From an uncultured Fidelibacterota bacterium (GTDB lineage Bacteria; Fidelibacterota; Marinisomatia; Marinisomatales; UBA1611): a stretch of 64,000 bases of DNA. Positions within the stretch are counted from its first letter, which is position 1. Every line of letters starts with the position of its first letter. Positions 1,605-16,387 of the stretch are shown here, piece by piece. The DNA is taken from contig CACEUX010000001.1 in assembly GCA_902562835.1 (NCBI GenBank), forward strand, positions 10,568-74,567. Reading direction: 5' to 3'. The notes under the pieces were generated by a model, which ran no database searches, had not been told where the DNA came from, and saw only the letters and a list, made by a program, of their open reading frames with translations. A program made the translations under genes and the position numbers.

Positions 1605-1633
1605 TTGACTTTAATGTCTCTTAGTCTTAATAT
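1605..1633 (+). promoter_or_regulatory. Sigma70-type promoter for the MORN-repeat gene
   Basis: TTGACT (1605-1610), 17-bp spacer, TAATAT (1628-1633). Confidence 0.55.
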
Positions 1634-1713
1634 TGGGAACAAAAGGTATCCGAGAGGGGGATAAATCATCCTCAAACCCTTTTTTTACATACTCAGATAA
1701 TGAGGATTTGACC

Positions 1714-4700
1714 ATGCGGAAAATACTGGTTAGTTCGTTCATTCTATCGTCAATGGCTCTTGCCCAGAACGATGGATTAGTAAAGACATATTACCCTAGT
1801 GGGGCACTCGAAACAGAAGGCAATTACACCAATGGTGTTCGGGATGGCCTCTGGACATTTTGGTATGAGGGTGAAGTATATGAAGACTATGGCGAAGATG
1901 GAGAACCCAACACGCAAGATGAAGGGGAAAACAATGGCCAATGGGACTCCACAGAGACTGTTATCCGCGACTTAGATGGTGATACCTTTTACGACCCCCC
2001 TGAAAAACAAATGGAAGGCTCTTACGCATTAGGAAATAGAGAGGGTCTATGGACAAACTGGTATATCAATGGTATGCGTAAAGAAGAATCAAATTATCTT
2101 TCTGGAAAACTCAATGGTACCATAATTCGATGGCATGAGAACGGCAACAAATCTGAAGAAGGCGTGTATGAAACTGGCAAGCAAAATGGGACCTGGGTCT
2201 GGTATTACGAAACCGGGATTAAAAAAGAGCAAACGCGATTCTTAGATGGACAACAAGACGGTTTATGGATCCAGTGGTTTAGCGATGGAGCAAAAAAATC
2301 AGAAAGAAAGTTTTCTAGTGGCGAGCGAGATAGTGTGTGGACTTCCTGGTTCGACAATGGAAACAAAAAATTTCAAGCTACTTATAAAAATGGAAAACTT
2401 AATGGTGAATGGACATCTTGGTATGAGGGTGGAATAGTTAAAGAAAAAAGTGGTGCCTACTTAAATAATAAGTTAGATAATAAGTGGACATACTGGGAGG
2501 ATGATGGAAGAAAAACAGAAGAAATAACATATAGTAATGGGATTAAAAACGGGTCATATGTATTTTGGAATTTTGATAATTATAAGACCCTTGCAGGGGA
2601 GTATTTAAATGGCGTAAAACATGGACTTTGGACACTATGGTATGATGATGGAATTATAAAAGCTGAGGAAAATTATGCCAATGGCGAAATGGATGGTCTG
2701 TGGAGCTGGTGGAGGCCTGACGGCGTAAAAGATAAAGAAGGCAACTATAAAAACGGTGTTAAACATGGATTGTGGATATCTTGGAGTACAGCTGACCGTA
2801 AAAAAGGAGAAGAAACTTATGTAAATGGAATTCTTGATGGCTTAGTAACTGTTTGGCATGAGAATGGAAATAAAGACCGAGAGGGAATAATCCGTGGTAA
2901 TGAACCAGAGGGAAGCTGGACATATTACTTCGCTGATGGAAAAGAAGATTTTAGATTTGATTATGGTTCTGGACTCGATCGAGTCCGTATTGCAGAATTA
3001 GAGGAGCGTGATGGTACTTTTTATAAGATAGGTAAACATAAACCCTATACTGGAATAGTTGTCGAATCAGGAGGTCTTAAAGATTATTTATTACTGGGTC
3101 GTTTTCAAGCAGGCCGGAGAGATGGACAATGGGTTCAATGGTATCGAAACGGACAAAAGGAAGTAGAAGGAATTTATTATAGAGGTAAAAAACATGGGGA
3201 TTGGACTCTCTGGTACGAGGATGGCACCCTTAAGGAAAAGGGGGCATTCGATATGGGTGTTGCTGATGGAAATTATCAATATTGGTACCCTAATGGTCAC
3301 CTACATATGGAGCAATCTTATAACAAAGGAGAACCACAAGGAAGATGGACCTGGTGGTTCGAGCACGACCACAACCTAAATTTCACAGATGGTACATGGT
3401 CCTATAATGGAGTAACATACAAAGCAGAAAATGATGAGGAACTATGGAACTGGTGGTGGTATCTCAATGACAATAAAGAAATGGAAGGGTATTATGTGGA
3501 TGGCCGAAAAAATGGCGTCTGGACCTGGTGGTTTGATACTGGCGTGAAACAATCAGAGGGCAACTACCTTGATGATGAGCAGAATGGCTTATGGGAATAT
3601 TTCGCACCTGATGGCTCGGTTGCAGAAGAAATAACTTTTTCAGGTGGTAAAAGAGATGGACGGTCTACCTTATGGCTTACACCTGAAGAAAAACAAGAAG
3701 AGAAATTTTATAAAAATGGAAAACTTGATGGGCCAAGTACATTTTGGGAAAATGGATATCGCAGTACTATGACAACTTATAAATCGAATACCCCAGAAGG
3801 GCCATGGGTTATTTGGTATTCAAATCTTGACCAAATCAAGGAACAGGGTTTCCATCAAAACGGGGTCAGAGAAGGCCTTACAACCTATTACTATGATGAT
3901 GGGAAAATGCAACGTGAAGGATTCTTCCAAGAAGGTCTTCCAGAGGGGGTTTGGACGTATTGGAATAAAGAGGGTGATAAAGATTTTGACTTTGATTTTG
4001 GGTCTGGATTAGAACATATCTCCTTAGAAGACCTAGTAGAAAGAGAGTCTATGTTTTATAAATTAGGCGAGGATAACCCCTTTACAGGAATTATTACCCA
4101 AGAAAACCCTGAGGCTGACTATCTGTTTTTAGGCAGAACCAAAGATGGTAAAAAAGATGGACAGTGGGTGAAGTGGTTTCCAAGTGGAAAAGATGTGCCT
4201 GAAATTATTTTAGTTGATGTGCCTAAGCCTGAGCCAACTATTCCGTGGAGTGGTGGCAAACAAGAGCAGGGTGGCTTCAAAGGCGGAGAGAAGCACGGAA
4301 AGTGGACCGAGTGGTATGACAATGAACACATTAAGTCTCATGGGACATATAACGAAGGCATCATGGACGGGGCCTGGACATTTTATCATCAAAATGGCGT
4401 GAAAGAAAAAGAGGGGTCGCTCATAAATGGAAATGCAGATGGTTTATGGATATTTTGGAATGATGAAGCAAATAAGGTACAAGAGGGTACTTTCTCTAAT
4501 GGTATAAAAGAGGGACAATGGACAGCCTGGTTTGAAGATGGTCGTCTTACAGAAGGATATTATGCTGGTGGTAAAAAAGATGCAACCTGGACAAGCTGGT
4601 GGGATTTTGATAGGGCAAGAAAAGAGATGCAAGGAGCATACAAAAAAGGTAAGATGGTTGATAAGTGGTTCTTTTATGATAAAAGCGGAAACCTTAAAGA

Positions 4701-4728
4701 GATAAGATACTTTTCTCCCGACTTCTAA
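1714..4728 (+). CDS. Large secreted MORN-variant repeat protein (YwqK-like family)
   Basis: Dozens of GxWxxWYxNGxKxxEGxYxxG repeats; ATG at 1714 after GAGGA gives signal peptide MRKILVSSFILSSMALA. Confidence 0.8.
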   Translation: MRKILVSSFILSSMALAQNDGLVKTYYPSGALETEGNYTNGVRDGLWTFWYEGEVYEDYGEDGEPNTQDEGENNGQWDSTETVIRDLDGDTFYDPPEKQMEGSYALGNREGLWTNWYINGMRKEESNYLSGKLNGTIIRWHENGNKSEEGVYETGKQNGTWVWYYETGIKKEQTRFLDGQQDGLWIQWFSDGAKKSERKFSSGERDSVWTSWFDNGNKKFQATYKNGKLNGEWTSWYEGGIVKEKSGAYLNNKLDNKWTYWEDDGRKTEEITYSNGIKNGSYVFWNFDNYKTLAGEYLNGVKHGLWTLWYDDGIIKAEENYANGEMDGLWSWWRPDGVKDKEGNYKNGVKHGLWISWSTADRKKGEETYVNGILDGLVTVWHENGNKDREGIIRGNEPEGSWTYYFADGKEDFRFDYGSGLDRVRIAELEERDGTFYKIGKHKPYTGIVVESGGLKDYLLLGRFQAGRRDGQWVQWYRNGQKEVEGIYYRGKKHGDWTLWYEDGTLKEKGAFDMGVADGNYQYWYPNGHLHMEQSYNKGEPQGRWTWWFEHDHNLNFTDGTWSYNGVTYKAENDEELWNWWWYLNDNKEMEGYYVDGRKNGVWTWWFDTGVKQSEGNYLDDEQNGLWEYFAPDGSVAEEITFSGGKRDGRSTLWLTPEEKQEEKFYKNGKLDGPSTFWENGYRSTMTTYKSNTPEGPWVIWYSNLDQIKEQGFHQNGVREGLTTYYYDDGKMQREGFFQEGLPEGVWTYWNKEGDKDFDFDFGSGLEHISLEDLVERESMFYKLGEDNPFTGIITQENPEADYLFLGRTKDGKKDGQWVKWFPSGKDVPEIILVDVPKPEPTIPWSGGKQEQGGFKGGEKHGKWTEWYDNEHIKSHGTYNEGIMDGAWTFYHQNGVKEKEGSLINGNADGLWIFWNDEANKVQEGTFSNGIKEGQWTAWFEDGRLTEGYYAGGKKDATWTSWWDFDRARKEMQGAYKKGKMVDKWFFYDKSGNLKEIRYFSPDF

Positions 4729-7555: not shown

Positions 7556-8491
7556 TTATTCTATCATTTCTCCACCAGAAAGAATATCCTCTAGGTTTAT
7601 AGCGCCGTCTTTTTCCATCTGTTTCACAGCATCAACAAATAATTTCCTGGCATTATCAACCTCTCTTTTTGGTTGAGGTTTTGAAGCTAAATCTTCATTA
7701 TACATTGCCTGTTTTTTCTGAGGAAGCATGTCTTTTAATTCATTTATCTTTTCTTCTTCCAAACCTTTAAAAGCAATTGGAAGGGTGTCTAGTTCAATTG
7801 AATTTAAAAGAGTTCGAACTTGATCTTCTGGGAATTTTTCCATGATATCTTCAAATGTAAGAAATAAGACCTTTACAGCAGCGTAAAGCTCAGGATCCTC
7901 ATTTTGAAGGGTCTGCATATATCTTTCTTGGTCATTTGATGACATATCACTCAACATATCGGCTATTTCTTTAGCACCGCCTCTTGAAAAGTCAGCAGTG
8001 CGTGGAAGATAGGTTGATTTTTCTTTTAATCTTGCTCCAACCTCTATAATTCCCTCAAGCGGAATATCATCCAAAGAGCCTAATTCAATTAGGACCTGAC
8101 CTTTTAATTCTGGTTCTAGTTTGTTTAACACGGTCATTTTTTTATCAGCTTCTAACTGAGCAAGTATCATGGCAATAACTGGAGGCTCTTCTTTATCAAG
8201 GAGAGCAAACATTTGCTCATCATTGAGATCTTCTAAAAAATCAAATGGCTGAATGGGACCATCTTCTTTCGTCTCATCCTGTTCTGCTAAGAACCCAAAA
8301 TAGAATTCTTCCATCACACGTTTTTTTACAAGAAAGGATACCGTCCCCATTGATCTTACTGTAGAGCGTATTTTTCTAACTTCTGTTTTAGACAAACCTT
8401 TAATTAATGACATTGCTAAACTTTCTCCAACAACAGAGAAAAGAATTGCAACTTTTTGAAGGCCTGAAAGCATATGATAATCGTTAATCAT
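7556..8491 (-). CDS. fliG: FliG-like rotor protein (divergent)
   Basis: LSGLQKVAIL N-terminus, PFDFL, EEPPVIAMIL (EHPQ position), GG linker, FLTFEDI (MFxFEDL position), torque-helix-like KKQAMYNEDL. Confidence 0.85.
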   Translation of the reverse strand: MINDYHMLSGLQKVAILFSVVGESLAMSLIKGLSKTEVRKIRSTVRSMGTVSFLVKKRVMEEFYFGFLAEQDETKEDGPIQPFDFLEDLNDEQMFALLDKEEPPVIAMILAQLEADKKMTVLNKLEPELKGQVLIELGSLDDIPLEGIIEVGARLKEKSTYLPRTADFSRGGAKEIADMLSDMSSNDQERYMQTLQNEDPELYAAVKVLFLTFEDIMEKFPEDQVRTLLNSIELDTLPIAFKGLEEEKINELKDMLPQKKQAMYNEDLASKPQPKREVDNARKLFVDAVKQMEKDGAINLEDILSGGEMIE

Positions 8492-8511: not shown

Positions 8512-10320
8512 TTATTCGCTACTTTCTTCTTCATCTCCGCCGCTATCGCCACCTGATGACTCTTCGGGTTCGGGAGAGGGCGCTTCAGGAGCGGGTTGCT
8601 CAAGCCACTCTTTAACAATAGTAGATGTCCTTGTAGGCTGGCCAACACTCATAGAAACGACAGATTTTCGTATATCATCTATTTCACTTTTTAAAACATT
8701 TGGATCATCTTCAAGCGAATGCTGCTCGCCATCATTTTCCTCTGATGATACGATATCTTCAGAAGTAGTTTCAGCAGCGACCTCTTCTTCTTTTACTTCT
8801 GGCTTCTCTGATGGCTCCTTTGGTTTTTGTTCCTCCTCTTTCTTTTCTTCCTTCTGCTCTTGTTGAGCAGCAGGTTTTTTCTTTTTTCTTCTCTTTCTGG
8901 GCCTAGGAGGAGGATAAGGAGGATAGGGCATTGGCGGATAGGCTTGCTGTGGCCCTGACCTACGTTGTAGAACCATCATTGCAATAAGCGCAGCTATCAC
9001 GGCACCAAATGCAAATAACATAATTGTCTTAGTATCCAATCCTGAAGAAGTTTCAGCTTCGAGAGCATCTAAGTCAGCTTGGACCGCATCTAGAGCTGCA
9101 ATTTTTTCTGCTATTAACGAGTCCCTTTCTGCTTTCTCTTTTTCACGTTCTTGTAGTTCTGCTTCTATCTGAGCCTGCGCTTGATTTTGCGCTTCTAGAG
9201 AATCCTGCAACATTGCTTGGAGTAACATCTTTCTTAGGCTTTGCAATTCATTATCAAGCATTGCAAATCGAGTGGAGTCTAATGCGGTTGCTTTTGCTTT
9301 TTCTGTAGACTGGTTTACTGCTAGCATATCTTTTAAGGCATTAATTTCTGATTCCAGTTTAGAATTTCTAATCGAGTCTTTCCTGGATAGTTCTCTTTTC
9401 TCATATTCAGCAGCTTCTTGTAAACGCTTTTTATCTAGTTCTTCAAGCTGGGTCTCTAAAAGGGCAAGGTCTTCTTCTCTTCGCACAGATATCTCTTCTT
9501 TATAATTTTCAATATCTTCTCTCCAGTTTGTGGATTCAGATGCTCTTTTTTGTTCTAGAAGATCTATCTTTTCAGCAATATTCTTTAGCATTATTTGTTC
9601 TGCCGATCTTTGGTCTCTGCGCTCTTTAAAACTCGCTGTCATGATTGTTAGCTTATCACCACGGTCTCTATCAAATTTTGAAGCGGCCATTGTGAGCTGT
9701 CTAATATTTTCTATTAATTCGGGTGCTGCCCCCTCTTGAAGTATCAGAGATAGCTCCATACGCTTCACAATTGCTCGAGAAGGTCGCTTTCTTGAGAGAA
9801 CCTTGTCTACAACATCTCTATCTTCTTCAGCAGAATCTTGTGATGGACTATCCATCGGGTCCATAGTTTTTGGAGAAATTGGATTGCTTTCAGTCAAGGG
9901 CCTTGAACTAGGTGTTTTTGGACGAACCACATCTACTTCAAAACCTGGAATAGGCAATCCAATAGAAAAACTTTCCTGCTCAGTTTGATTATCTTGAACC
10001 ATTTTATTTTGAATCTTTACAAGAGCCTCTGCTGTTCTTTCTGCTGGAGAACTTTCTACCGGTTGGCTACGACCTGATTCTCGTGGTGCAAAAACTGTTA
10101 TCTGCTCATTAACCTCATCAAGGATCTCCAAGTCAACATCTACATTGATCACATACTTGTGAGAGTCGATTACTTTTGAAAGAGCCTCTTTAACTCGATC
10201 TCTGATATCATTTTCGACCATTAGTTTTTGAGAGAGATATCCGCTCGCCTGCGCAGAAAGCAAGGCTACACCAATAACCACTCCAATAATGGCTTTAATA
10301 TGTTTTTTACCCTTGTTCAT
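8512..10320 (-). CDS. FliF-like ring protein (RBM3/C-terminal part only) with long coiled coil, TM helix and FliG-binding-like tail
   Basis: ENDIRDRVKEALSKV...VINVDVDL, IVKRMELSLIL, IRQLTMAASKFDRDRGDKLTIMTASF, then a TM helix and PTRTSTIVKEWL; adjacent to fliG. Confidence 0.7.
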   Translation of the reverse strand: MNKGKKHIKAIIGVVIGVALLSAQASGYLSQKLMVENDIRDRVKEALSKVIDSHKYVINVDVDLEILDEVNEQITVFAPRESGRSQPVESSPAERTAEALVKIQNKMVQDNQTEQESFSIGLPIPGFEVDVVRPKTPSSRPLTESNPISPKTMDPMDSPSQDSAEEDRDVVDKVLSRKRPSRAIVKRMELSLILQEGAAPELIENIRQLTMAASKFDRDRGDKLTIMTASFKERRDQRSAEQIMLKNIAEKIDLLEQKRASESTNWREDIENYKEEISVRREEDLALLETQLEELDKKRLQEAAEYEKRELSRKDSIRNSKLESEINALKDMLAVNQSTEKAKATALDSTRFAMLDNELQSLRKMLLQAMLQDSLEAQNQAQAQIEAELQEREKEKAERDSLIAEKIAALDAVQADLDALEAETSSGLDTKTIMLFAFGAVIAALIAMMVLQRRSGPQQAYPPMPYPPYPPPRPRKRRKKKKPAAQQEQKEEKKEEEQKPKEPSEKPEVKEEEVAAETTSEDIVSSEENDGEQHSLEDDPNVLKSEIDDIRKSVVSMSVGQPTRTSTIVKEWLEQPAPEAPSPEPEESSGGDSGGDEEESSE

Positions 10321-10364: not shown

Positions 10365-11309
10365 TTAATCATCCATATAACTTGTGGCAGAACGATCTCT
10401 AAGTTCCGCATCCTTAGCCGCCTTGCCTTTTAGGCCTTTCTTTTTACCATGGTGTGGTGGATTAATAAATGTAATCTGAATTCTTCTATTTGCTGATTTT
10501 TGCTTTTTTGTAGAGTTTAATGATAAAACTGTTGGCATAATTGTTTCATTACCTTGCTTGTCTACCCTAACTATTGGATCTTCCCATGTCAATGTTAACG
10601 GATTATACATCGGGTTTGCTTTTTTTACACTATCAATGCCCCTTGGATACCAATCGCCATATCCTGCCGCTAAAAGCCTTGGAGCTGGAACACCTTTTTC
10701 AATCATATACCTTACCACGGTTGCACCACGAGCCGCAGAAAGCTCCCAGTTACTCTTGTAGAATTTTTGCCATTTTTTTGGCATTGGGTCACTATCGGAG
10801 TGCCCAGCTACTTCAACCTGAAATGGGCTGGCTTGAATCCTTGGAATAATTTCTGTATCTAATAATTCTTCAAGCTCTTTCTTCATATCTGCCTTCCCAG
10901 ATGGAAAAGCAAAATCTCCTTTGATATTCACGATGAGACCCTTTGCACTAGTTTCAATATCAATAGGCGGGTCTCCAGCGGGATTTTCTTTTTTCATTTC
11001 TTCGATGGCTTCTTTCATCTCTTTTTTCATAGCTGCAAGATTTTTTATTGGCTCAAACTCTCCTTCTTCTTCTGCTTTCCCCTGAGCCTTTATTTTACTA
11101 CCTAATGATTTCCCCTGTGAGTTTGCCATCTCCTGCAGTTTTACAGGATCCATAGTAGATATAGCCGCTAGAAGCACAAAAAAAGCAAAGAGAAGCGTCA
11201 TCATATCAGCGAAAGTTCCAAACCATCCTGGAAGTCCTTCTTCAACAGAATTTACTCCTTCTTCAAAGCCTTTATTCCAGGCCTTCTTTTCTCCAGCTGT
11301 CATTCCCAT
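10365..11309 (-). CDS. motB: MotB/PomB-type stator subunit with OmpA-like peptidoglycan-binding domain
   Basis: WFGTFADMMTLLFAFFVLL TM with the conserved Asp; VAGHSD, SNWELSAARGATV, GYG, NRRIQI. Confidence 0.9.
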   Translation of the reverse strand: MGMTAGEKKAWNKGFEEGVNSVEEGLPGWFGTFADMMTLLFAFFVLLAAISTMDPVKLQEMANSQGKSLGSKIKAQGKAEEEGEFEPIKNLAAMKKEMKEAIEEMKKENPAGDPPIDIETSAKGLIVNIKGDFAFPSGKADMKKELEELLDTEIIPRIQASPFQVEVAGHSDSDPMPKKWQKFYKSNWELSAARGATVVRYMIEKGVPAPRLLAAGYGDWYPRGIDSVKKANPMYNPLTLTWEDPIVRVDKQGNETIMPTVLSLNSTKKQKSANRRIQITFINPPHHGKKKGLKGKAAKDAELRDRSATSYMDD

Positions 11310-11314
11310 TTAGA

Positions 11315-12100
11315 CTAATCTCGTTTCCACTCCGCAGGTGGGATAAAAGAATTTAGTTTTTCTCGTACAATAATTGGATGTTTTTTCTGGTGAATGAGAC
11401 GTGCTGCTTCCACAAGTAAGTTTGCAGACATGGAGGTCTGTGTGGTTTTATTTCCCATCTTTTGGGCCATAGGTAAGAAGAATAGGTTTGCAGCAACAGC
11501 ACCATAAAGAGTAGTTATCAACGCTGCAGCCATACCACCACCAAGGTTATCAGCACCACCCTCTCCGCCAAATCCAGCCAACATAAGGACAAGACCAATA
11601 AGGGTCCCAACCATACCCCAAGCAGGAGAGAGATCACCCATCGCTTTTAGCATATCTGTTTGAACCTTCTCACGCTTTTCGCGATATTCAATTCTTGTTT
11701 CCAAAATATCTGTTACTTCATCTAAAGAGTACCCATCTACTACCATTTGTACCCCATCTTTAAAGAAATAGGTTTTTATTGTATCAACAGATTTTTCCAA
11801 ATCAGCTGGCCCTTTTCTTGCATACTCAGCAACATCACAAGCCTCATCTACCAATGGACCCATTTTATCATCTGCTGGTTTCAGTACAGCACCAATCGCC
11901 TTACCAAGCGCAGCTACATGATACATAGGAAAAGCTACCATGACTGAAGCTATCATTCCTCCGATTACAATGCCAAAACTTGGGATAGAAACAAAATTTC
12001 CAAAGCCACCTGCTGCACCCTCAACAAATAACGCATAGGCAATACTGCCTATCATAAAGACCATTCCTAAAACAACACCTATAATGAGAGCAATATCCAT
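11315..12100 (-). CDS. motA: MotA/PomA-type stator subunit
   Basis: PSFGIVIGG, ARKGPADLE, GVQMVVDG, PAWGMVGTLIGLVLML, ALITTLYGA. Confidence 0.9.
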   Translation of the reverse strand: MDIALIIGVVLGMVFMIGSIAYALFVEGAAGGFGNFVSIPSFGIVIGGMIASVMVAFPMYHVAALGKAIGAVLKPADDKMGPLVDEACDVAEYARKGPADLEKSVDTIKTYFFKDGVQMVVDGYSLDEVTDILETRIEYREKREKVQTDMLKAMGDLSPAWGMVGTLIGLVLMLAGFGGEGGADNLGGGMAAALITTLYGAVAANLFFLPMAQKMGNKTTQTSMSANLLVEAARLIHQKKHPIIVREKLNSFIPPAEWKRD

Positions 12101-12104
12101 AAGG

Positions 12105-13520
12105 TCACTCCTCCATAATGCTTGTAGATTTTAATTTATTTTCGTTCAGAGCTTTCAGAATATTACGAACATCTGTATACTCTGGATCGAGGCGCAACGC
12201 CAGATTCCAGTTTATAGTAGCTCTCTGTACATCTCCTAATTTATAGTAGATTGACCCTCTTCTGGCATATGCTAATGCTAAATCAGGATTTAATTCTAAG
12301 GCGAGGTCTACCTCTTTTAAGGCCTCTCTATAGTCCCCAGCATAGAAGAACCTTAATGATCGAGATAAGAATCTCATCGCTTCATTCATGTTTTTTTCAG
12401 AAACATTAGTTTCCAATTTAAGGGATGTTAATGAATCAGATAAAAACTTACTATTTTGTTCCATTGCATTAAGACGAACAAGTAGGTTCCTCATTTCATT
12501 ATTCATTAGGGCCATAGAATCCCTAAGTGTTGATACTGCTACATTTGCCATAGCAACAGTGGAATCTCTATGTATTGGTATGCTATCATCAAATCTTTTA
12601 TTAATACCACCACTAGGCCCATATATATTGGTAGGACTAGAAGGTCCACTTTGAACTCGCTGCCTAGGGTCTCTAGGTACAGCCATATCAAGTCCCAAGG
12701 TAAAGCCTGGATGGCCAGACCAATAGCGATTGCCCCATTCTGGTAATTTTTCCATGTGGGTGAACCCTAGGTTCAGGCGGTAATCCGAGGTAAGGGGGAT
12801 GCGGAGTCCCACATTGACACCTGTCCCGTCGAATTCACCCACAATATCCATTCCACCCCGCCTTGCAAAGTACGGGGTTTTCATTAAAAAGCCTACAAAT
12901 ACGCCCGCATTATTTTCAGTGGAGTCAGTAATGACAGCTCCATTAGCATCTAATAATGCTGGAAGAGTATCTGCAGCAACTGGTGCTAATCCACCAGTTC
13001 CAAAACCAAAATATGTATCAAACTTATACTCGCCCAAGTCTTTTTGACTTGATAATACAACAAAGGCAGAAAGAAGAGAGGTGTTCAAGCTAAGCATTTC
13101 TTCTGAGGTCTGTTCGCTTTGGAAAACCACATCTTGAAGACCGACTGAAACAGAGATATCATTATACTTATAAACTCGCTGTTGAAAATGAAAACCAAAT
13201 TCAGCAGGAGCGTCATACTGAGACTCTTCTAGGTTACTTAACCTTGTTGTGTCTCCAGGTATAACAGCGGAAAAACCAGCACTAAACCCTTTACCAACCT
13301 CCATTTCAAAGAACGCACCTTTTGCAGTATTAAAAGGATTAAGGTTGTGATATTCAACCGATACTCCTGTTCTAAATAGATATGGGGTCTTTTTATTGCT
13401 TGATGTAGGAATGCGCATCATCAATCCTGGGCGTGTATATGCAACTCGGGTTCCTCCTATTAATAAACAAGAAAGAACCAGGGCTGAAATAATAGCAATG
13501 TGTCTGCGATTAAAATCCAT
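12105..13520 (-). CDS. Putative outer-membrane beta-barrel (YjbH-like) + coiled coil + C-terminal TPR protein
   Basis: Signal peptide, GLMMRIPT start, alternating aromatic/hydrophobic strands, heptad region, TPRs (ALELNPDLALAYARRG, ALRLDPEY). Confidence 0.55.
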   Translation of the reverse strand: MDFNRRHIAIISALVLSCLLIGGTRVAYTRPGLMMRIPTSSNKKTPYLFRTGVSVEYHNLNPFNTAKGAFFEMEVGKGFSAGFSAVIPGDTTRLSNLEESQYDAPAEFGFHFQQRVYKYNDISVSVGLQDVVFQSEQTSEEMLSLNTSLLSAFVVLSSQKDLGEYKFDTYFGFGTGGLAPVAADTLPALLDANGAVITDSTENNAGVFVGFLMKTPYFARRGGMDIVGEFDGTGVNVGLRIPLTSDYRLNLGFTHMEKLPEWGNRYWSGHPGFTLGLDMAVPRDPRQRVQSGPSSPTNIYGPSGGINKRFDDSIPIHRDSTVAMANVAVSTLRDSMALMNNEMRNLLVRLNAMEQNSKFLSDSLTSLKLETNVSEKNMNEAMRFLSRSLRFFYAGDYREALKEVDLALELNPDLALAYARRGSIYYKLGDVQRATINWNLALRLDPEYTDVRNILKALNENKLKSTSIMEE

Positions 13521-13562: not shown

Positions 13563-14735
13563 TTATTGATATTCTTCCCAATCTATTACATAAGAATATC
13601 CAATGAACGCTCCAAAATCCTGGGGAACATAAAGATCAAATTTACCTACGGCTCCAGGAAGAAGGCTCGCATCTGAAACAATCCCTGTGTCAAAAGTGTT
13701 ATATGAACCCTTAACAAAAGTGGTCAGAGTTTTTGTTTCACCACTCCAGTTCTTCCTAAAAACAAAGTCTACTTTTACAAAATCTGCTCTACGTCCACCT
13801 ATGTTTTTAATTTCACCATCAAATATTATGTTTCCCTGCCCATCCTTTTTTTCTGAAATATTACCAACCAAGACACAATTGCCAGAAAATTTTGCGCTAG
13901 CATTGCTTGCAGAGTTATTTGAAGATGTATATCGTGGTTGTGCTAGCTTAGGCATCGGTGGCGGAGTATAGCTTTCGCGTATCTGCTCTGGTACATACTC
14001 TTGCGTGTCTTCTGTAATGACATTATCGACAATTCGCACAACCTGCGCCCTATCGACAATTAAATATCCAACCAGGGTCTCTACTTTGAGCGATTTATCA
14101 TCCTGGTAAATAATCTTACCAAAAACAGTACTACCGTTTTTTAGAATTATTTCTTTTGAATAAATAGTAAGAGGGTTAACCCACATCTTACTTAAAGCCT
14201 TTAAATCATCCATTTCCTGAGAAAGGTGTTTGAATTCTGCAGAAAGCTTTTTTATTTCAAAGTTTAGCTCATTCAGAATGAAATCCTTACTTGGACTCCC
14301 CATTGCCTCCATGGTTTGTGGAACCGTCACTGAGATGCGCTCTGGCTGTCCGCTTGGCGCTGCCTTAACCTGAGATTCCGCAACTGGGGCACTAGGTTTT
14401 TTAGTTGAGAGCGCTATGTCTCCTATGTTTTCTTTTCCAGTTAGTGTGACAATTTTTTCTGCTGATCCCAAATTATCATGTGATGCCTGCAGCACATAAT
14501 CACCCTCTTCTAACTTTTTGAATTTAAACTTCCCATTGCCGCCCGTTTTTTCTTCATCAACAACTTCGCCCCCTGAAAGCAATGTGACTATGGCCTTTTT
14601 AACCTTCTTGCCATCTGAATCAACTATCCTTCCTGATAGGGTGAGTTTTCCTTTAGCATATAGAGTGGACCCTATAAGCGTAAGGACGACTGTAGCGAGC
14701 AGTGCTCGCTTTTGTAGGCTATTAATTAGTGTCAT
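13563..14735 (-). CDS. Secreted protein: carboxypeptidase-regulatory-like Ig domain + coiled coil + small beta-barrel + FxLYD-like domain
   Basis: SGRIVDSDGKKVKKAIVTL...TGGNGKFKFKKLEEGDYVL; IILKNGSTVFGKI; GEIKNIGG...LLPGAVGKF; GAGGT RBS. Confidence 0.55.
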   Translation of the reverse strand: MTLINSLQKRALLATVVLTLIGSTLYAKGKLTLSGRIVDSDGKKVKKAIVTLLSGGEVVDEEKTGGNGKFKFKKLEEGDYVLQASHDNLGSAEKIVTLTGKENIGDIALSTKKPSAPVAESQVKAAPSGQPERISVTVPQTMEAMGSPSKDFILNELNFEIKKLSAEFKHLSQEMDDLKALSKMWVNPLTIYSKEIILKNGSTVFGKIIYQDDKSLKVETLVGYLIVDRAQVVRIVDNVITEDTQEYVPEQIRESYTPPPMPKLAQPRYTSSNNSASNASAKFSGNCVLVGNISEKKDGQGNIIFDGEIKNIGGRRADFVKVDFVFRKNWSGETKTLTTFVKGSYNTFDTGIVSDASLLPGAVGKFDLYVPQDFGAFIGYSYVIDWEEYQ

Positions 14736-14789: not shown

Positions 14790-14818
14790 ATTTTAATGCA
14801 AAATGGGCAATGTGTCAA
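14790..14818 (-). promoter_or_regulatory. Sigma70-type promoter of the motor-like operon
   Basis: On the minus strand TTGACA (14818-14813), 17 bp, TAAAAT (14795-14790). Confidence 0.65.
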
Positions 14819-14865
14819 GAATTTATAGAATGTATTGAATTTGATAGAAAACTATATAAAAGTGA

Positions 14866-15450
14866 TTATTTCCAAAAATCTTTTAGACGTTTTTCTCGTT
14901 CTAACGCTAGCGATAATTCCTCTTTAGTTTTTTGCATTATCTCTGGCCTCAATGAAAGGCCCAGGGCCTTTTCATATGATTCTATAATCAGATCAAAATC
15001 AGTATCTCCGATCTTATGATAAGAAAGACCAATATAATAATGAGCCTCCCCTAGCCGAGGTTTAAGCTGAGCGGCTTTATTATATTTTTGGATAGCATCC
15101 CAAAGCCCATTTTTATTGCCTTTTTTATAAAGAGAGTGTCCTTCTGCCAATAATAAATTGTATTGTGATAAAGTATCTCCATCAGAAAGTTTTAACGCAT
15201 GTGAAAAATGAACAATAGCTGCTTCATAGTTGTTTGTCTCCAGTTCCTTACTCCCAAGTCTATTGTGTGCAAATGCCAATGACCTTGTGATCGATGGTGA
15301 TAACCCATATATAGACAAAGAATCTTCTAAGGCAACTAGAGCAGCCGGGTTATTGTGAGCCATATTTTGATATTTATTACCGGCACAACTAAAAAAAGCC
15401 ATAGCTAATGGAAAAAGGAGTGGCAAATAACTAATTGATCTAACCCTCAA
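14866..15450 (-). CDS. TPR-repeat lipoprotein
   Basis: Lipobox-like FFSC; TPR helices (YEAAIVHFSHAL, AHYYIGLSY, SYEKAL); start uncertain, TTG at 15450 chosen to avoid a long overlap. Confidence 0.6.
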   Translation of the reverse strand: MRVRSISYLPLLFPLAMAFFSCAGNKYQNMAHNNPAALVALEDSLSIYGLSPSITRSLAFAHNRLGSKELETNNYEAAIVHFSHALKLSDGDTLSQYNLLLAEGHSLYKKGNKNGLWDAIQKYNKAAQLKPRLGEAHYYIGLSYHKIGDTDFDLIIESYEKALGLSLRPEIMQKTKEELSLALEREKRLKDFWK

Positions 15451-16387
15451 ATAAAAAAATCTCTTTATTTTCTCTAAATGACCGGTATAGCTCTTCCATT
15501 GACTCAATCACATAATAGCGGTCTTGTATGTTGCTATAATCAAAACAGGTCATCACTATCTCTTCAATATCATAAGGTAAAAATATAGACCGACCAGATT
15601 TCCCTTTTGCACATTCAACCACATTTGTTACCTCATCAAAAGAGGATATAATTCCCGCACCATATATCTCATATTGGATGTCATTGTGTACTCTTCTAAA
15701 ATTATCAGATGCTCCATTATTTTTTAACAGGCCATATTCATAGGTCCACCATGCAAAGTTTTGTAGTCGCTTGAGGTTATGAGTAACAAGATCGGAACCT
15801 AGCTTACGATGGTCTTTTATTATCTCATCTCCCAAAATACCAATTTCCCACATGAACTTTGCATACTCTTTGTTCATTAGAAATGGCACATGGGCTTGTA
15901 TATCATGGAAAATATCTGGCTCCGGAGTATAGCCTTTATTATTTTTAATATCTGCACCAGAATATTTCTCATCAAACCTAGGTGACTTCCTAATTATCTC
16001 TGTTACAGGGAATTGTCTTTTCTTATTTATCTCAAAAAACAACTCTTCATCTAAAAATCCCGCAACCGATAATAGCGTCCACCCTGTTGAGTTTTCAAGC
16101 AATGGGGATATTGCGCTAAAATCAGGGAACATATTATTAGGTATGGGAAGAGCTCTTAGGCCTAGTAGGTATTCACTGGAAGCGTATTGATCAAGAAGTA
16201 ATTCAAGATTTTGATAGAGCTCCGCCCAGATTCTATTCTCTAGGTTGTTTACAGCATCGTAGTCTTGAGGCTTAACATACTGGTCTTCAACCCCAAATAT
16301 CTTAATACCATCGATGCTGTTAGGAATCAGGTTTTGAAATAAATGGTCGTATCCTTGGGGCTTAGAAATCATATGATATTTTAACAA
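15440..16387 (-). CDS. Biopterin-dependent aromatic amino acid hydroxylase (PhhA-like, divergent)
   Basis: TGWTL, FPVTEIIR, YTPEPDIFHDIQAHVPFL, WWTYEYGL, YGAGIISSFDE: His/His/Glu iron ligands present. Confidence 0.8.
   Translation of the reverse strand: MLKYHMISKPQGYDHLFQNLIPNSIDGIKIFGVEDQYVKPQDYDAVNNLENRIWAELYQNLELLLDQYASSEYLLGLRALPIPNNMFPDFSAISPLLENSTGWTLLSVAGFLDEELFFEINKKRQFPVTEIIRKSPRFDEKYSGADIKNNKGYTPEPDIFHDIQAHVPFLMNKEYAKFMWEIGILGDEIIKDHRKLGSDLVTHNLKRLQNFAWWTYEYGLLKNNGASDNFRRVHNDIQYEIYGAGIISSFDEVTNVVECAKGKSGRSIFLPYDIEEIVMTCFDYSNIQDRYYVIESMEELYRSFRENKEIFLFEG

Follow-up and report, generated by a model that had tools for sequence, protein, structure and literature searches.

ExbBD, TolQR, GldLM and AglRQS are non-flagellar 5:2 ion-driven motors, in each of which an engine of the MotAB family is put to envelope tasks. 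To our knowledge none of these systems uses FliG or a FliF-type ring, and we know of no role for FliG besides that in the flagellar rotor. In the flagellar motor, the EHPQR loop of FliG forms the contact with FliM and its torque helix forms the contact with the stator, as outlined in a review (PMC7355467); non-flagellar relatives of MotAB are the subject of a further report (PMC12505986). We examined a 64,000-nucleotide stretch of DNA from an uncultured Fidelibacterota bacterium (assembly GCA_902562835.1, contig CACEUX010000001.1, positions 10,568 to 74,567 of the forward strand; hereafter ‘the window’), which contains a minus-strand gene for a FliG-like protein. We think it rather probable that this protein is the rotor subunit of a non-flagellar rotor-stator module, FliM-less and independent of chemotaxis, that is derived from or sister to the core of the flagellar motor. 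The features of the gene and its product are as follows.

7556..8491, minus strand: FliG-like protein (P0001), 311 amino acids, ATG start; truncated N domain, middle domain and C domain; last gene of its operon
8249..8299, minus strand: 17-residue linker between the N and middle domains (residues 65–81), lying between VMEEFY and PFDFL
8180..8191, minus strand: EEPP (residues 101–104) at the EHPQ site, placed by HMMER alignments exactly on the EHPQ of the solved Aquifex and Thermotoga FliG structures
8084-8086, minus strand: E136 in place of the Arg of EHPQR, from the HMMER alignment to the same two solved proteins
7976..7981, minus strand: Gly-Gly linker, G171-G172, from alignment to solved FliG; G172 is invariant and G171 is present in at least 90% of 33 sequences
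7847..7864, minus strand: hinge F210-L-T-F-E-D215, the counterpart of canonical M-F-x-F-E-D in alignments
7652..7717, minus strand: torque-helix segment (residues 259–280) with K259, E266 and D267, from alignment to solved FliG

The protein matches the Pfam families FliG_N (52.4 bits), FliG_M (44.3 bits) and FliG_C (71.9 bits), all over their curated cut-offs, with the FliG_N match covering only positions 2–65 of the 104 in that profile. Its score against the fliG equivalog model TIGR00207 (102.5 bits) is below the cut-off of 226.7. An AlphaFold model computed from 33 relatives, with a mean predicted local distance difference test score (pLDDT) of 82, found full-length FliG as its best Foldseek matches (Salmonella C rings and Aquifex FliG; probability 1.0). 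At the level of single domains, the Foldseek template modeling (TM) scores were 0.85 for the middle domain (against FliG_M 4fq0_C), 0.81 for the C domain (against FliG_C 1qc7_B) and, over 67 columns, 0.60 for the N domain against a FliF-bound FliG_N (5tdy_D). The gene thus encodes a three-domain FliG homolog in which the FliM-docking EHPQR loop has been replaced and approximately 26 residues of the N domain are gone. Its closest homologs are labelled Fidelibacterota or Candidatus Neomarinimicrobiota, that is Marinimicrobia or SAR406, which ranks among the most abundant bacteria of the dark ocean.

The extent of these differences was visible in an alignment of 135 FliG sequences, comprising 75 canonical proteins, 29 of the window's type and 31 natural fusions of FliF-like and FliG parts that are described below. 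The Gln at the fourth position of the motif is present in all 75 canonical sequences, in two of the 31 fusions and in none of the 29 of the window's type. For the Arg of EHPQR the corresponding counts are 72, none and none. The spacing that corresponds to VMEEFY–PFDFL has a median of 44 residues in canonical FliG (range 39–52), as compared with 17 in both the window's type (15–32) and the fusions (13–23), and a 26-column gap in the N domain is common to all 21 window-type sequences of another alignment (the window and 20 loci from other genomes). Among 115 close homologs, the site reads EEPP in 63, EETP in 25, EDPP in 23, EESP in three and EEGP in one.

An earlier reading of this gene, made from the letters of the DNA (the original prediction), had pointed to EEPP in place of EHPQ, to a segment of only about 17 residues where canonical FliG has a longer one, and to the retention of the Gly-Gly linker and of an FxFED motif (here L211-T-F-E-D215), all of which the alignments bear out. 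EEPP variants that were common in flagellated species would have spoken against its interpretation, but none of the 75 canonical sequences carries EEPP. The altered ring geometry that it suggested is plausible by analogy, given the truncated N domain: according to the review cited above (PMC7355467), a Salmonella FliF-FliG deletion fusion without most of FliG_N builds smaller C rings. That fusion resembles the protein described here in that a major part of FliG_N is missing, while the rotor still works and the C ring has 31 subunits. It differs in being a laboratory construct in a complete flagellum with FliM and FliN, whereas the truncation in the window's protein is natural and smaller, and its setting lacks FliM.

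The window's gene is a separate paralog and not an ordinary flagellar FliG. In a sample of 121 genomes from the phylum, FliG_C was found in 93 and FliM in 29; all of the latter are among the 93, which leaves 64 genomes with FliG_C but without a FliM match. The FliG_C matches fall in two classes, one scoring approximately 132–152 bits (frames of about 340–375 amino acids) and the other below about 107 bits (mostly 307–345 amino acids), and 20 genomes of the sample contain one of each, five of which were checked by locus. The expectation that loss of EHPQ would go together with absence of fliM is therefore borne out in part: most genomes with FliG_C have no FliM match, but the window's type is also present in genomes that have FliM. 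From the weaker class we retrieved 20 loci, one per genome, and from the stronger class 14. Scores in phmmer searches with the window's protein were bimodal (184–416 bits for the 20 window-type loci, 69–103 bits for the 14 canonical copies from the same phylum), and all 14 strong-class proteins read E-(H/N)-P-Q and have the Arg, whereas all 21 window-type proteins, the window's own included, have neither the His, the Gln nor the Arg. A tree of the 135 FliG regions places the 75 canonical sequences, including the 14 from the phylum, on one side of a branch of length 0.89 (Shimodaira–Hasegawa-like approximate likelihood ratio test, SH-aLRT, 100%); on the other side are the 29 rows of the window's type, with a support of 92, and the 31 fusion rows, with one of 99.

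Two genera have no FliG_C match at all: one in the window's order, with genomes of about 1 Mb (none of six, at 96–99% completeness), and another with genomes of about 2 Mb (none of 15), so some streamlined SAR406 lineages do without the module. One genome of the window's class (G030) has a FliM match of 166 bits together with a FliG_C match of only 26 bits on the same contig, which may represent an unusually divergent flagellar FliG.

The source genome (1.84 Mb in 97 contigs, 77.7% complete) contains the window's gene as its sole FliG_C match, and profile searches of that incomplete assembly for FliM, FliMN_C, FHIPEP (FlhA), FliP, Flg_bb_rod and Flagellin_N returned no matches. Because the assembly is incomplete, we also examined 13 members of its family, of which six reach a completeness of at least 90% and one, from the same genus, stands at 96%. 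FliM, FliMN_C, CheW and MCPsignal were each found in none of the 13, and FHIPEP in none of eight family genomes at least 92% complete, while FliG_C was present in 11 of the 13 and in all six of the high-quality genomes. In the order as a whole, FHIPEP exceeded its cut-off in 10 of 61 genomes, and flagellated relatives therefore exist. These results agree with the original prediction that the protein has no FliM or FliN partner, and they make independence from CheY plausible. The same prediction spoke of a rotor without a switch; the missing switch stands, but the protein does not belong to a flagellar rotor that lost its switch, being a separate paralog in a genome where the whole flagellum is missing. 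The genome of the same genus mentioned above (G163; 96% complete, 3% contamination) has two FliG_C matches of the short type, in frames of 311 and 312 amino acids on contigs C52 and C7, which could reflect a duplication, a mixture of strains or contamination.

The FliG-like gene is co-transcribed in a fixed order with a gene for a FliF-like protein, in an operon that also encodes MotA, MotB and two or three envelope proteins. In the window, the operon comprises seven minus-strand genes with intact frames, the last six of which are separated by gaps of 4–44 bases. All 20 loci sampled across the phylum, in many families, share the order and strand of these six core genes and have them intact. 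The six genes that precede the FliG-like gene, and the parts of the FliF-like protein, are as follows.

14866..15507, minus strand: 213-residue TPR protein, whose gene probably opens the operon; because of an overlap with the end of the neighboring open reading frame, its exact start is in doubt
13563..14735, minus strand: secreted protein of 390 residues (P0124), carrying a CarboxypepD_reg beta-sandwich domain and found at all 20 loci
12105..13520, minus strand: 471-residue envelope protein (P0123) with an N-terminal domain of no assigned family, a coiled coil and a C-terminal TPR region (Pfam), present in 20 of 20 loci
11315..12100, minus strand: MotA (P0125), 261 residues, of the flagellar type with four transmembrane helices; R95 (11816-11818) and E102 (11795-11797) lie in the cytoplasmic domain
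10365..11309, minus strand: MotB (P0126), 314 residues, with a plug, a transmembrane helix carrying D35 (11205-11207) and an OmpA-like peptidoglycan-binding domain
8512..10320, minus strand: FliF-like protein (P0122), 602 residues, with a signal or anchor helix, an RBM3-like ring domain, a coiled-coil hairpin, a transmembrane helix and a tail
9634-10245, minus strand: RBM3-like domain of the FliF-like protein, residues 26–229, with a disordered insert (model and structural search)
residues 237–424 of the FliF-like protein: periplasmic coiled-coil hairpin of two helices of about 90 residues each (model)
residues 430–454 of the FliF-like protein: transmembrane helix, followed by a strongly basic stretch (model)
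8599-8703, minus strand: cytoplasmic tail of the FliF-like protein, two helices, residues 540–574 (model)

The FliF-like protein keeps only the S-ring domain (RBM3) of FliF, a membrane helix and a C-terminal tail that resembles the FliF one. It narrowly passes the cut-off of Pfam YscJ_FliF_C (26.9 bits against 23.8), and a profile of the 21 family members matches residues 241–439 of Salmonella FliF with an E value of 1.6e-9. Its model has a mean pLDDT of 67 and is of high confidence in the folded parts; a structural search by a method other than Foldseek (VIA) placed FliF MS-ring structures first (Z scores of 15.4 and 15.4, the next unrelated fold reaching 9.1), including 6scn_A, to which 128 residues aligned with a root-mean-square deviation of 4.9. 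No match to RBM1 or RBM2 (YscJ_FliF, PF01514) was obtained with Pfam or NCBIfam, the family profile matches only residues 241–439 and the tail of FliF, and in the model the mature protein begins directly with the RBM3-like domain. RBM1 and RBM2 surround the export gate in flagella, and their absence here fits the lack of an export apparatus. The two helices of the tail, in which W572 is invariant in all 21 proteins, align weakly with the C terminus of Salmonella FliF. In a predicted complex, residues 1–95 of the FliG-like protein and 528–590 of the FliF-like protein scored 0.48 (best control, 0.00), with three runs agreeing in at least 85% of contacts and a partner pLDDT of at least 63; the prediction tool rates this as weak support for an interaction.

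The coiled coil of the FliF-like protein is very variable in length, being nearly absent in two genomes of one family (proteins of 386–389 amino acids) and about 40 residues longer in another (625 amino acids; loci L017, L018 and L019). If it were a spacer to the wall or the outer membrane, the geometry of the envelope would differ among lineages.

The window's MotA aligns over its full length with MotA and PomA of solved flagellar stators (E of about 4e-34). Its A-R-K-G sequence aligns with R88-K89 of PomA, its L-E falls on the same two letters in Clostridium sporogenes MotA, and the counterparts of R95 and E102 in E. coli MotA are R90 and E98 (numbering as in PMC12505986). R95 is conserved in 21 of 21 operons and E102 in 19, and the channel Asp of MotB (D35) is present in all 21. 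The equivalog cut-offs for named stators were missed, the best being MotP (174.9 against 394), and we therefore regard the pair as a stator of the family rather than the ortholog of a named one. On the rotor side, K259 takes the alignment position of the Arg that corresponds to E. coli R281, and E266-D267 that of the acidic pair corresponding to D288/D289, at the same spacing of seven residues. The R281 column is basic in all 29 window-type sequences of the 135-sequence alignment, and 88 of the 115 close homologs retain the acidic pair.

Five of the 20 loci come from genomes (G001, G004, G016, G033 and G073) that also have canonical FliG and FliM. In all five, the MotA of the module scores 194–224 bits against the window's MotA, and in four of them a further MotA (122–153 bits) lies on a contig with fliM and canonical fliG. 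This coexistence indicates that the module is served by a stator of its own and does not depend on the flagellum; it is kept across the phylum in genomes with or without one. The source genome also has a second MotA/MotB pair (contig C14, L004:634-3072), directly downstream of a rhomboid protease gene, with a MotA of 280 amino acids (MotA_N and MotA_ExbB) and a MotB of 244 (plug and OmpA). Of the five flagellated SAR406 genomes searched, four also have a MotA of similar size (282–290 amino acids).

Among the other operon products, the 213-residue TPR protein has a phmmer homolog only in one locus of the same family (L006), and in other lineages one or two further TPR_6/YfiO-like genes lie within the operon. 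The N-terminal domain of the 471-residue protein is possibly like the outer-membrane barrel protein YjbH: the protein showed a language-model likeness of 0.93 to YjbH clusters, but Pfam YjbH matched none of 20 family members at E values up to 1, and we treat the likeness as a lead only.

A related arrangement exists outside SAR406. A search of 1.84 billion representatives returned many proteins of 560–770 amino acids that align with the whole of the window's protein in one stretch, and that are natural fusions of a FliF-like membrane part with a FliG part. A scan of species genomes, using an alignment of 11 sequences from one fusion clade, identified at least 46 loci, nearly all in marine Gammaproteobacteria (Thalassolituus, Oleispira, Bermanella, Marinicellulosiphila, Aliivibrio fischeri, A. 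logei and A. finisterrensis); because a single clade was used, this taxonomic range is a lower bound. On chromosome II of A. fischeri ES114 the order of genes is response regulator, histidine kinase, 350-residue protein, TPR protein, 579-residue fusion, MotA and MotB. The first two, an OmpR-type response regulator and a sensor histidine kinase on the same strand directly upstream of the cassette (L085:2042-4098), might be a dedicated regulator. The ES114 genome has only two MotA-type genes, and the MotA/MotB pair of the cassette is therefore the published motA2/motB2 (VF_A0186/VF_A0187; bioRxiv 10.1101/2023.08.07.552283). In the published account of insertion mutants in these two genes, the mutants swim normally in soft agar, and neither motA2 nor motB2 is activated by FlrA (Brennan et al. 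2013, PMC3948606). We found no mention of the fusion gene beside motA2/motB2 in the literature searched.

The fusions resemble the SAR406 type in their short linker, in the loss of the Arg and nearly always of the fourth-position Gln (two of them read EEPP), in adjoining their own MotA/MotB and a TPR protein, and in their side of the tree. They differ in that the ring protein and FliG form one polypeptide, in that the coiled coil is absent or short, and in gene order, the fusion preceding MotA/MotB. Between the A. fischeri and SAR406 operons, MotA is 29% and the FliG part 23% identical. A homology of the accessory outer-membrane proteins of the two was also considered and is not supported (BLASTP E of 0.097). 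We treat the free-standing SAR406 proteins and the fused gammaproteobacterial ones as one non-flagellar subtype of FliG, recognized by the short linker, the loss of EHPQR and a position beside an RBM3-only FliF-like part and its own MotA/MotB; this is a working definition and not a curated family.

Taken as a rotor-stator module, the parts could be assembled in the following way. The FliF-like protein would form a ring in the inner membrane, and its cytoplasmic tail would hold the truncated N domain of FliG. MotB would anchor units of the MotA5B2 type to peptidoglycan, ion flow through MotB D35 would turn MotA, and R95 and E102 of MotA would push on K259, E266 and D267 of FliG, causing the ring of FliG and FliF-like subunits to rotate. 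Since neither FliM/FliN nor chemotaxis genes were found, there would be no CheY input and the motor is probably not switchable; running in a single direction, which the original prediction also proposed, is a reasonable inference. The output would not be a filament; the TPR, beta-sandwich and outer-membrane partners would most likely receive it by way of the periplasmic ring and the coiled coil, so that the task of the module would be an envelope or surface process.

The likeness to the flagellar motor core takes in the following: the three domains, Gly-Gly linker, hinge and torque-helix charges of FliG; the Arg and Glu of the rotor interface of MotA; the plug, channel Asp and OmpA-like domain of MotB; and the RBM3 fold of the FliF-like protein, whose C-terminal tail may also be of the type that binds FliG. 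The differences are that genes for FliM/FliN, export, rod, hook and filament were not found in the SAR406 source genome, that FliG has its EHPQR replaced and about 26 residues of FliG_N fewer, that the FliF-like protein is without RBM1/RBM2 and has a long periplasmic coiled coil, and that the operon partners are TPR, beta-sandwich and outer-membrane-type proteins. The module in turn differs from ExbBD, TolQR, GldLM and AglRQS in that its MotA is of the flagellar four-helix type with a torque-generating cytoplasmic domain.

Several points weigh against this interpretation. For all members of the module everything past sequence, fold and synteny is inference, rotation included, and no output component was identified among its parts. 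The absence of flagellar genes rests on relatives, the source genome being incomplete; the tree comes from a quick search, is unrooted, and covers the 150 best library representatives and the fetched loci; the score of the predicted complex between the FliG-like and FliF-like proteins is weak and may reflect likeness to solved FliF-FliG complexes; and the cassettes of SAR406 and A. fischeri may do different jobs, as their accessory outer-membrane proteins show no BLASTP similarity. The torque helix is a further point. The charges that the original prediction considered to be kept are indeed kept in the window's gene, but not in the family as a whole. In 12 of the 20 loci from other genomes, which belong to the window's class and one other family, the aligned segment is four residues shorter and lacks the acidic pair, with one acidic residue in its place in 10 of the 12. 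In the other eight, including those of the flagellated genomes, the helix is of full length with an E-D-E acidic cluster, and in the window's own clade it is two residues shorter with the E-D kept. The canonical electrostatic interface is thus not strictly kept, despite R95 of MotA.

The degenerate acidic pair is also one of the points in favor of the main rival explanation, which we regard as unlikely, though far from negligible: that the system is an energy transducer and not a free rotor. The FliF-like and FliG-like proteins would then be a fixed docking and activation platform, and ion flow through MotAB would convey limited movement or force, as Tol-Pal or Ton systems do, to the TPR and outer-membrane partners. 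The neighborhood accords with this, since its TPR proteins, which are of the YfiO/TPR_6 kind, and its OmpA-type anchor have parallels around Tol-Pal, and the searches of the source genome for FliP, Flg_bb_rod and Flagellin_N revealed no axial or filament component. A transducer of this kind is harder to reconcile with a MotA that keeps the flagellar four-helix architecture, the cytoplasmic domain and both charged residues, or with a partner whose ring-forming RBM3 domain finds its best structural match in the MS ring; and FliG itself has, as far as we know, no role except as a rotor.

A second alternative, which we consider improbable, retains the motor but makes it switchable or otherwise regulated, by a partner that replaces FliM and docks on another surface of the FliG-like protein. 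E101, the first Glu of the old EHPQ site, is invariant in all 33 sequences, and a two-component system lies directly upstream of the related A. fischeri cassette. E101 is, however, the sole residue of the site that is invariant throughout the family. Positions 102–104 vary freely, with 22 distinct four-residue motifs among the 29 window-type sequences, which argues against a conserved docking loop, and no candidate gene for a cytoplasmic partner is conserved in the 20 loci. With only the first Glu invariant, the loop looks, from its sequence, freed from constraint rather than re-tuned to a new partner.

That the operon is a decaying remnant of a lost flagellum, without present function, is contradicted by several observations and is very improbable. 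The lineage does have flagellated kin (FHIPEP in 10 of the 61 genomes of the order, FliM in 29 of the 121 of the phylum), which implies that flagellar loss has occurred in it, but the seven frames of the operon are intact and the order of the six core genes is the same in all 20 loci. The paralog moreover stands beside complete canonical copies in some genomes and is separated from them in the tree. Signs of continuing constraint and expression point the same way. Contigs from marine metatranscriptomes of three studies match all six core genes, from CarboxypepD_reg to FliG-like, at 95% identity or more, and their cover includes 7605-8044, inside the FliG-like gene. Third codon positions of the minus-strand frames account for 34 of the 40 listed differences between such contigs and the window, against a chance expectation of one third (binomial p of about 2e-11). 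The nearest DNA compared is only 62% identical in protein, a divergence at which dN/dS would be saturated. The cover by RNA libraries is no more than suggestive of transcription, as such libraries can hold DNA; operon stretches without cover (for example 10414-10961 and 14798-15345) are uninformative either way. Even less credible, and likewise contradicted, is an ordinary flagellar FliG whose companion genes lie in the unassembled 22% of the genome: an assembly in 97 contigs at 77.7% completeness leaves room for such a gap, but the absence of FliM, FliMN_C, CheW and MCPsignal from all 13 family genomes and of FHIPEP from the eight searched, the failure at the fliG equivalog cut-off, and a grouping with the non-flagellar type rather than with the canonical FliG of the phylum all speak against it.

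In the literature searched, we found no description of a module of FliG, FliF-like protein and MotAB outside flagella, in SAR406 or elsewhere. A term search of PMC12505986 and PMC13277936 found mention of neither the phylum nor a non-flagellar FliG in those articles, whose supplements could list such genes. Returning to the rotor-stator interpretation in its fullest form, we tentatively propose, at somewhat less than even odds, that the envelope of SAR406 contains a free-standing, FliM-less, ion-driven rotary motor built of a FliG ring, an RBM3-only FliF ring and MotAB, that marine Gammaproteobacteria have it in fused form, and that its lineage, separate from all flagella, could be an early offshoot or a survivor of a pre-flagellar core; what it drives would be an outer-membrane or surface process and not a filament.

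If this is true, the torque-generating core has a second, non-swimming use, with FliG, a ring of its own and a stator under selection across a mostly non-flagellated phylum, and beside a full set of flagellar genes in some SAR406 members and in A. fischeri. This would bear on the origin of the flagellar motor, either as a minimal rotor-stator that preceded the export apparatus and the switch or as a later re-use, and on the purpose of the orphan stators of the motA2B2 type that appear in genome surveys. Some carriers of the fused form, A. fischeri and Thalassolituus among them, are in culture, which opens the question to laboratory experiment.

Beyond the end of the operon, a pyruvate phosphate dikinase gene converges on it, and upstream of that gene lies another (1633-4728, plus strand) for a protein of 1031 amino acids that consists mostly of MORN-variant repeats (PF07661, summed score 138.6 bits).

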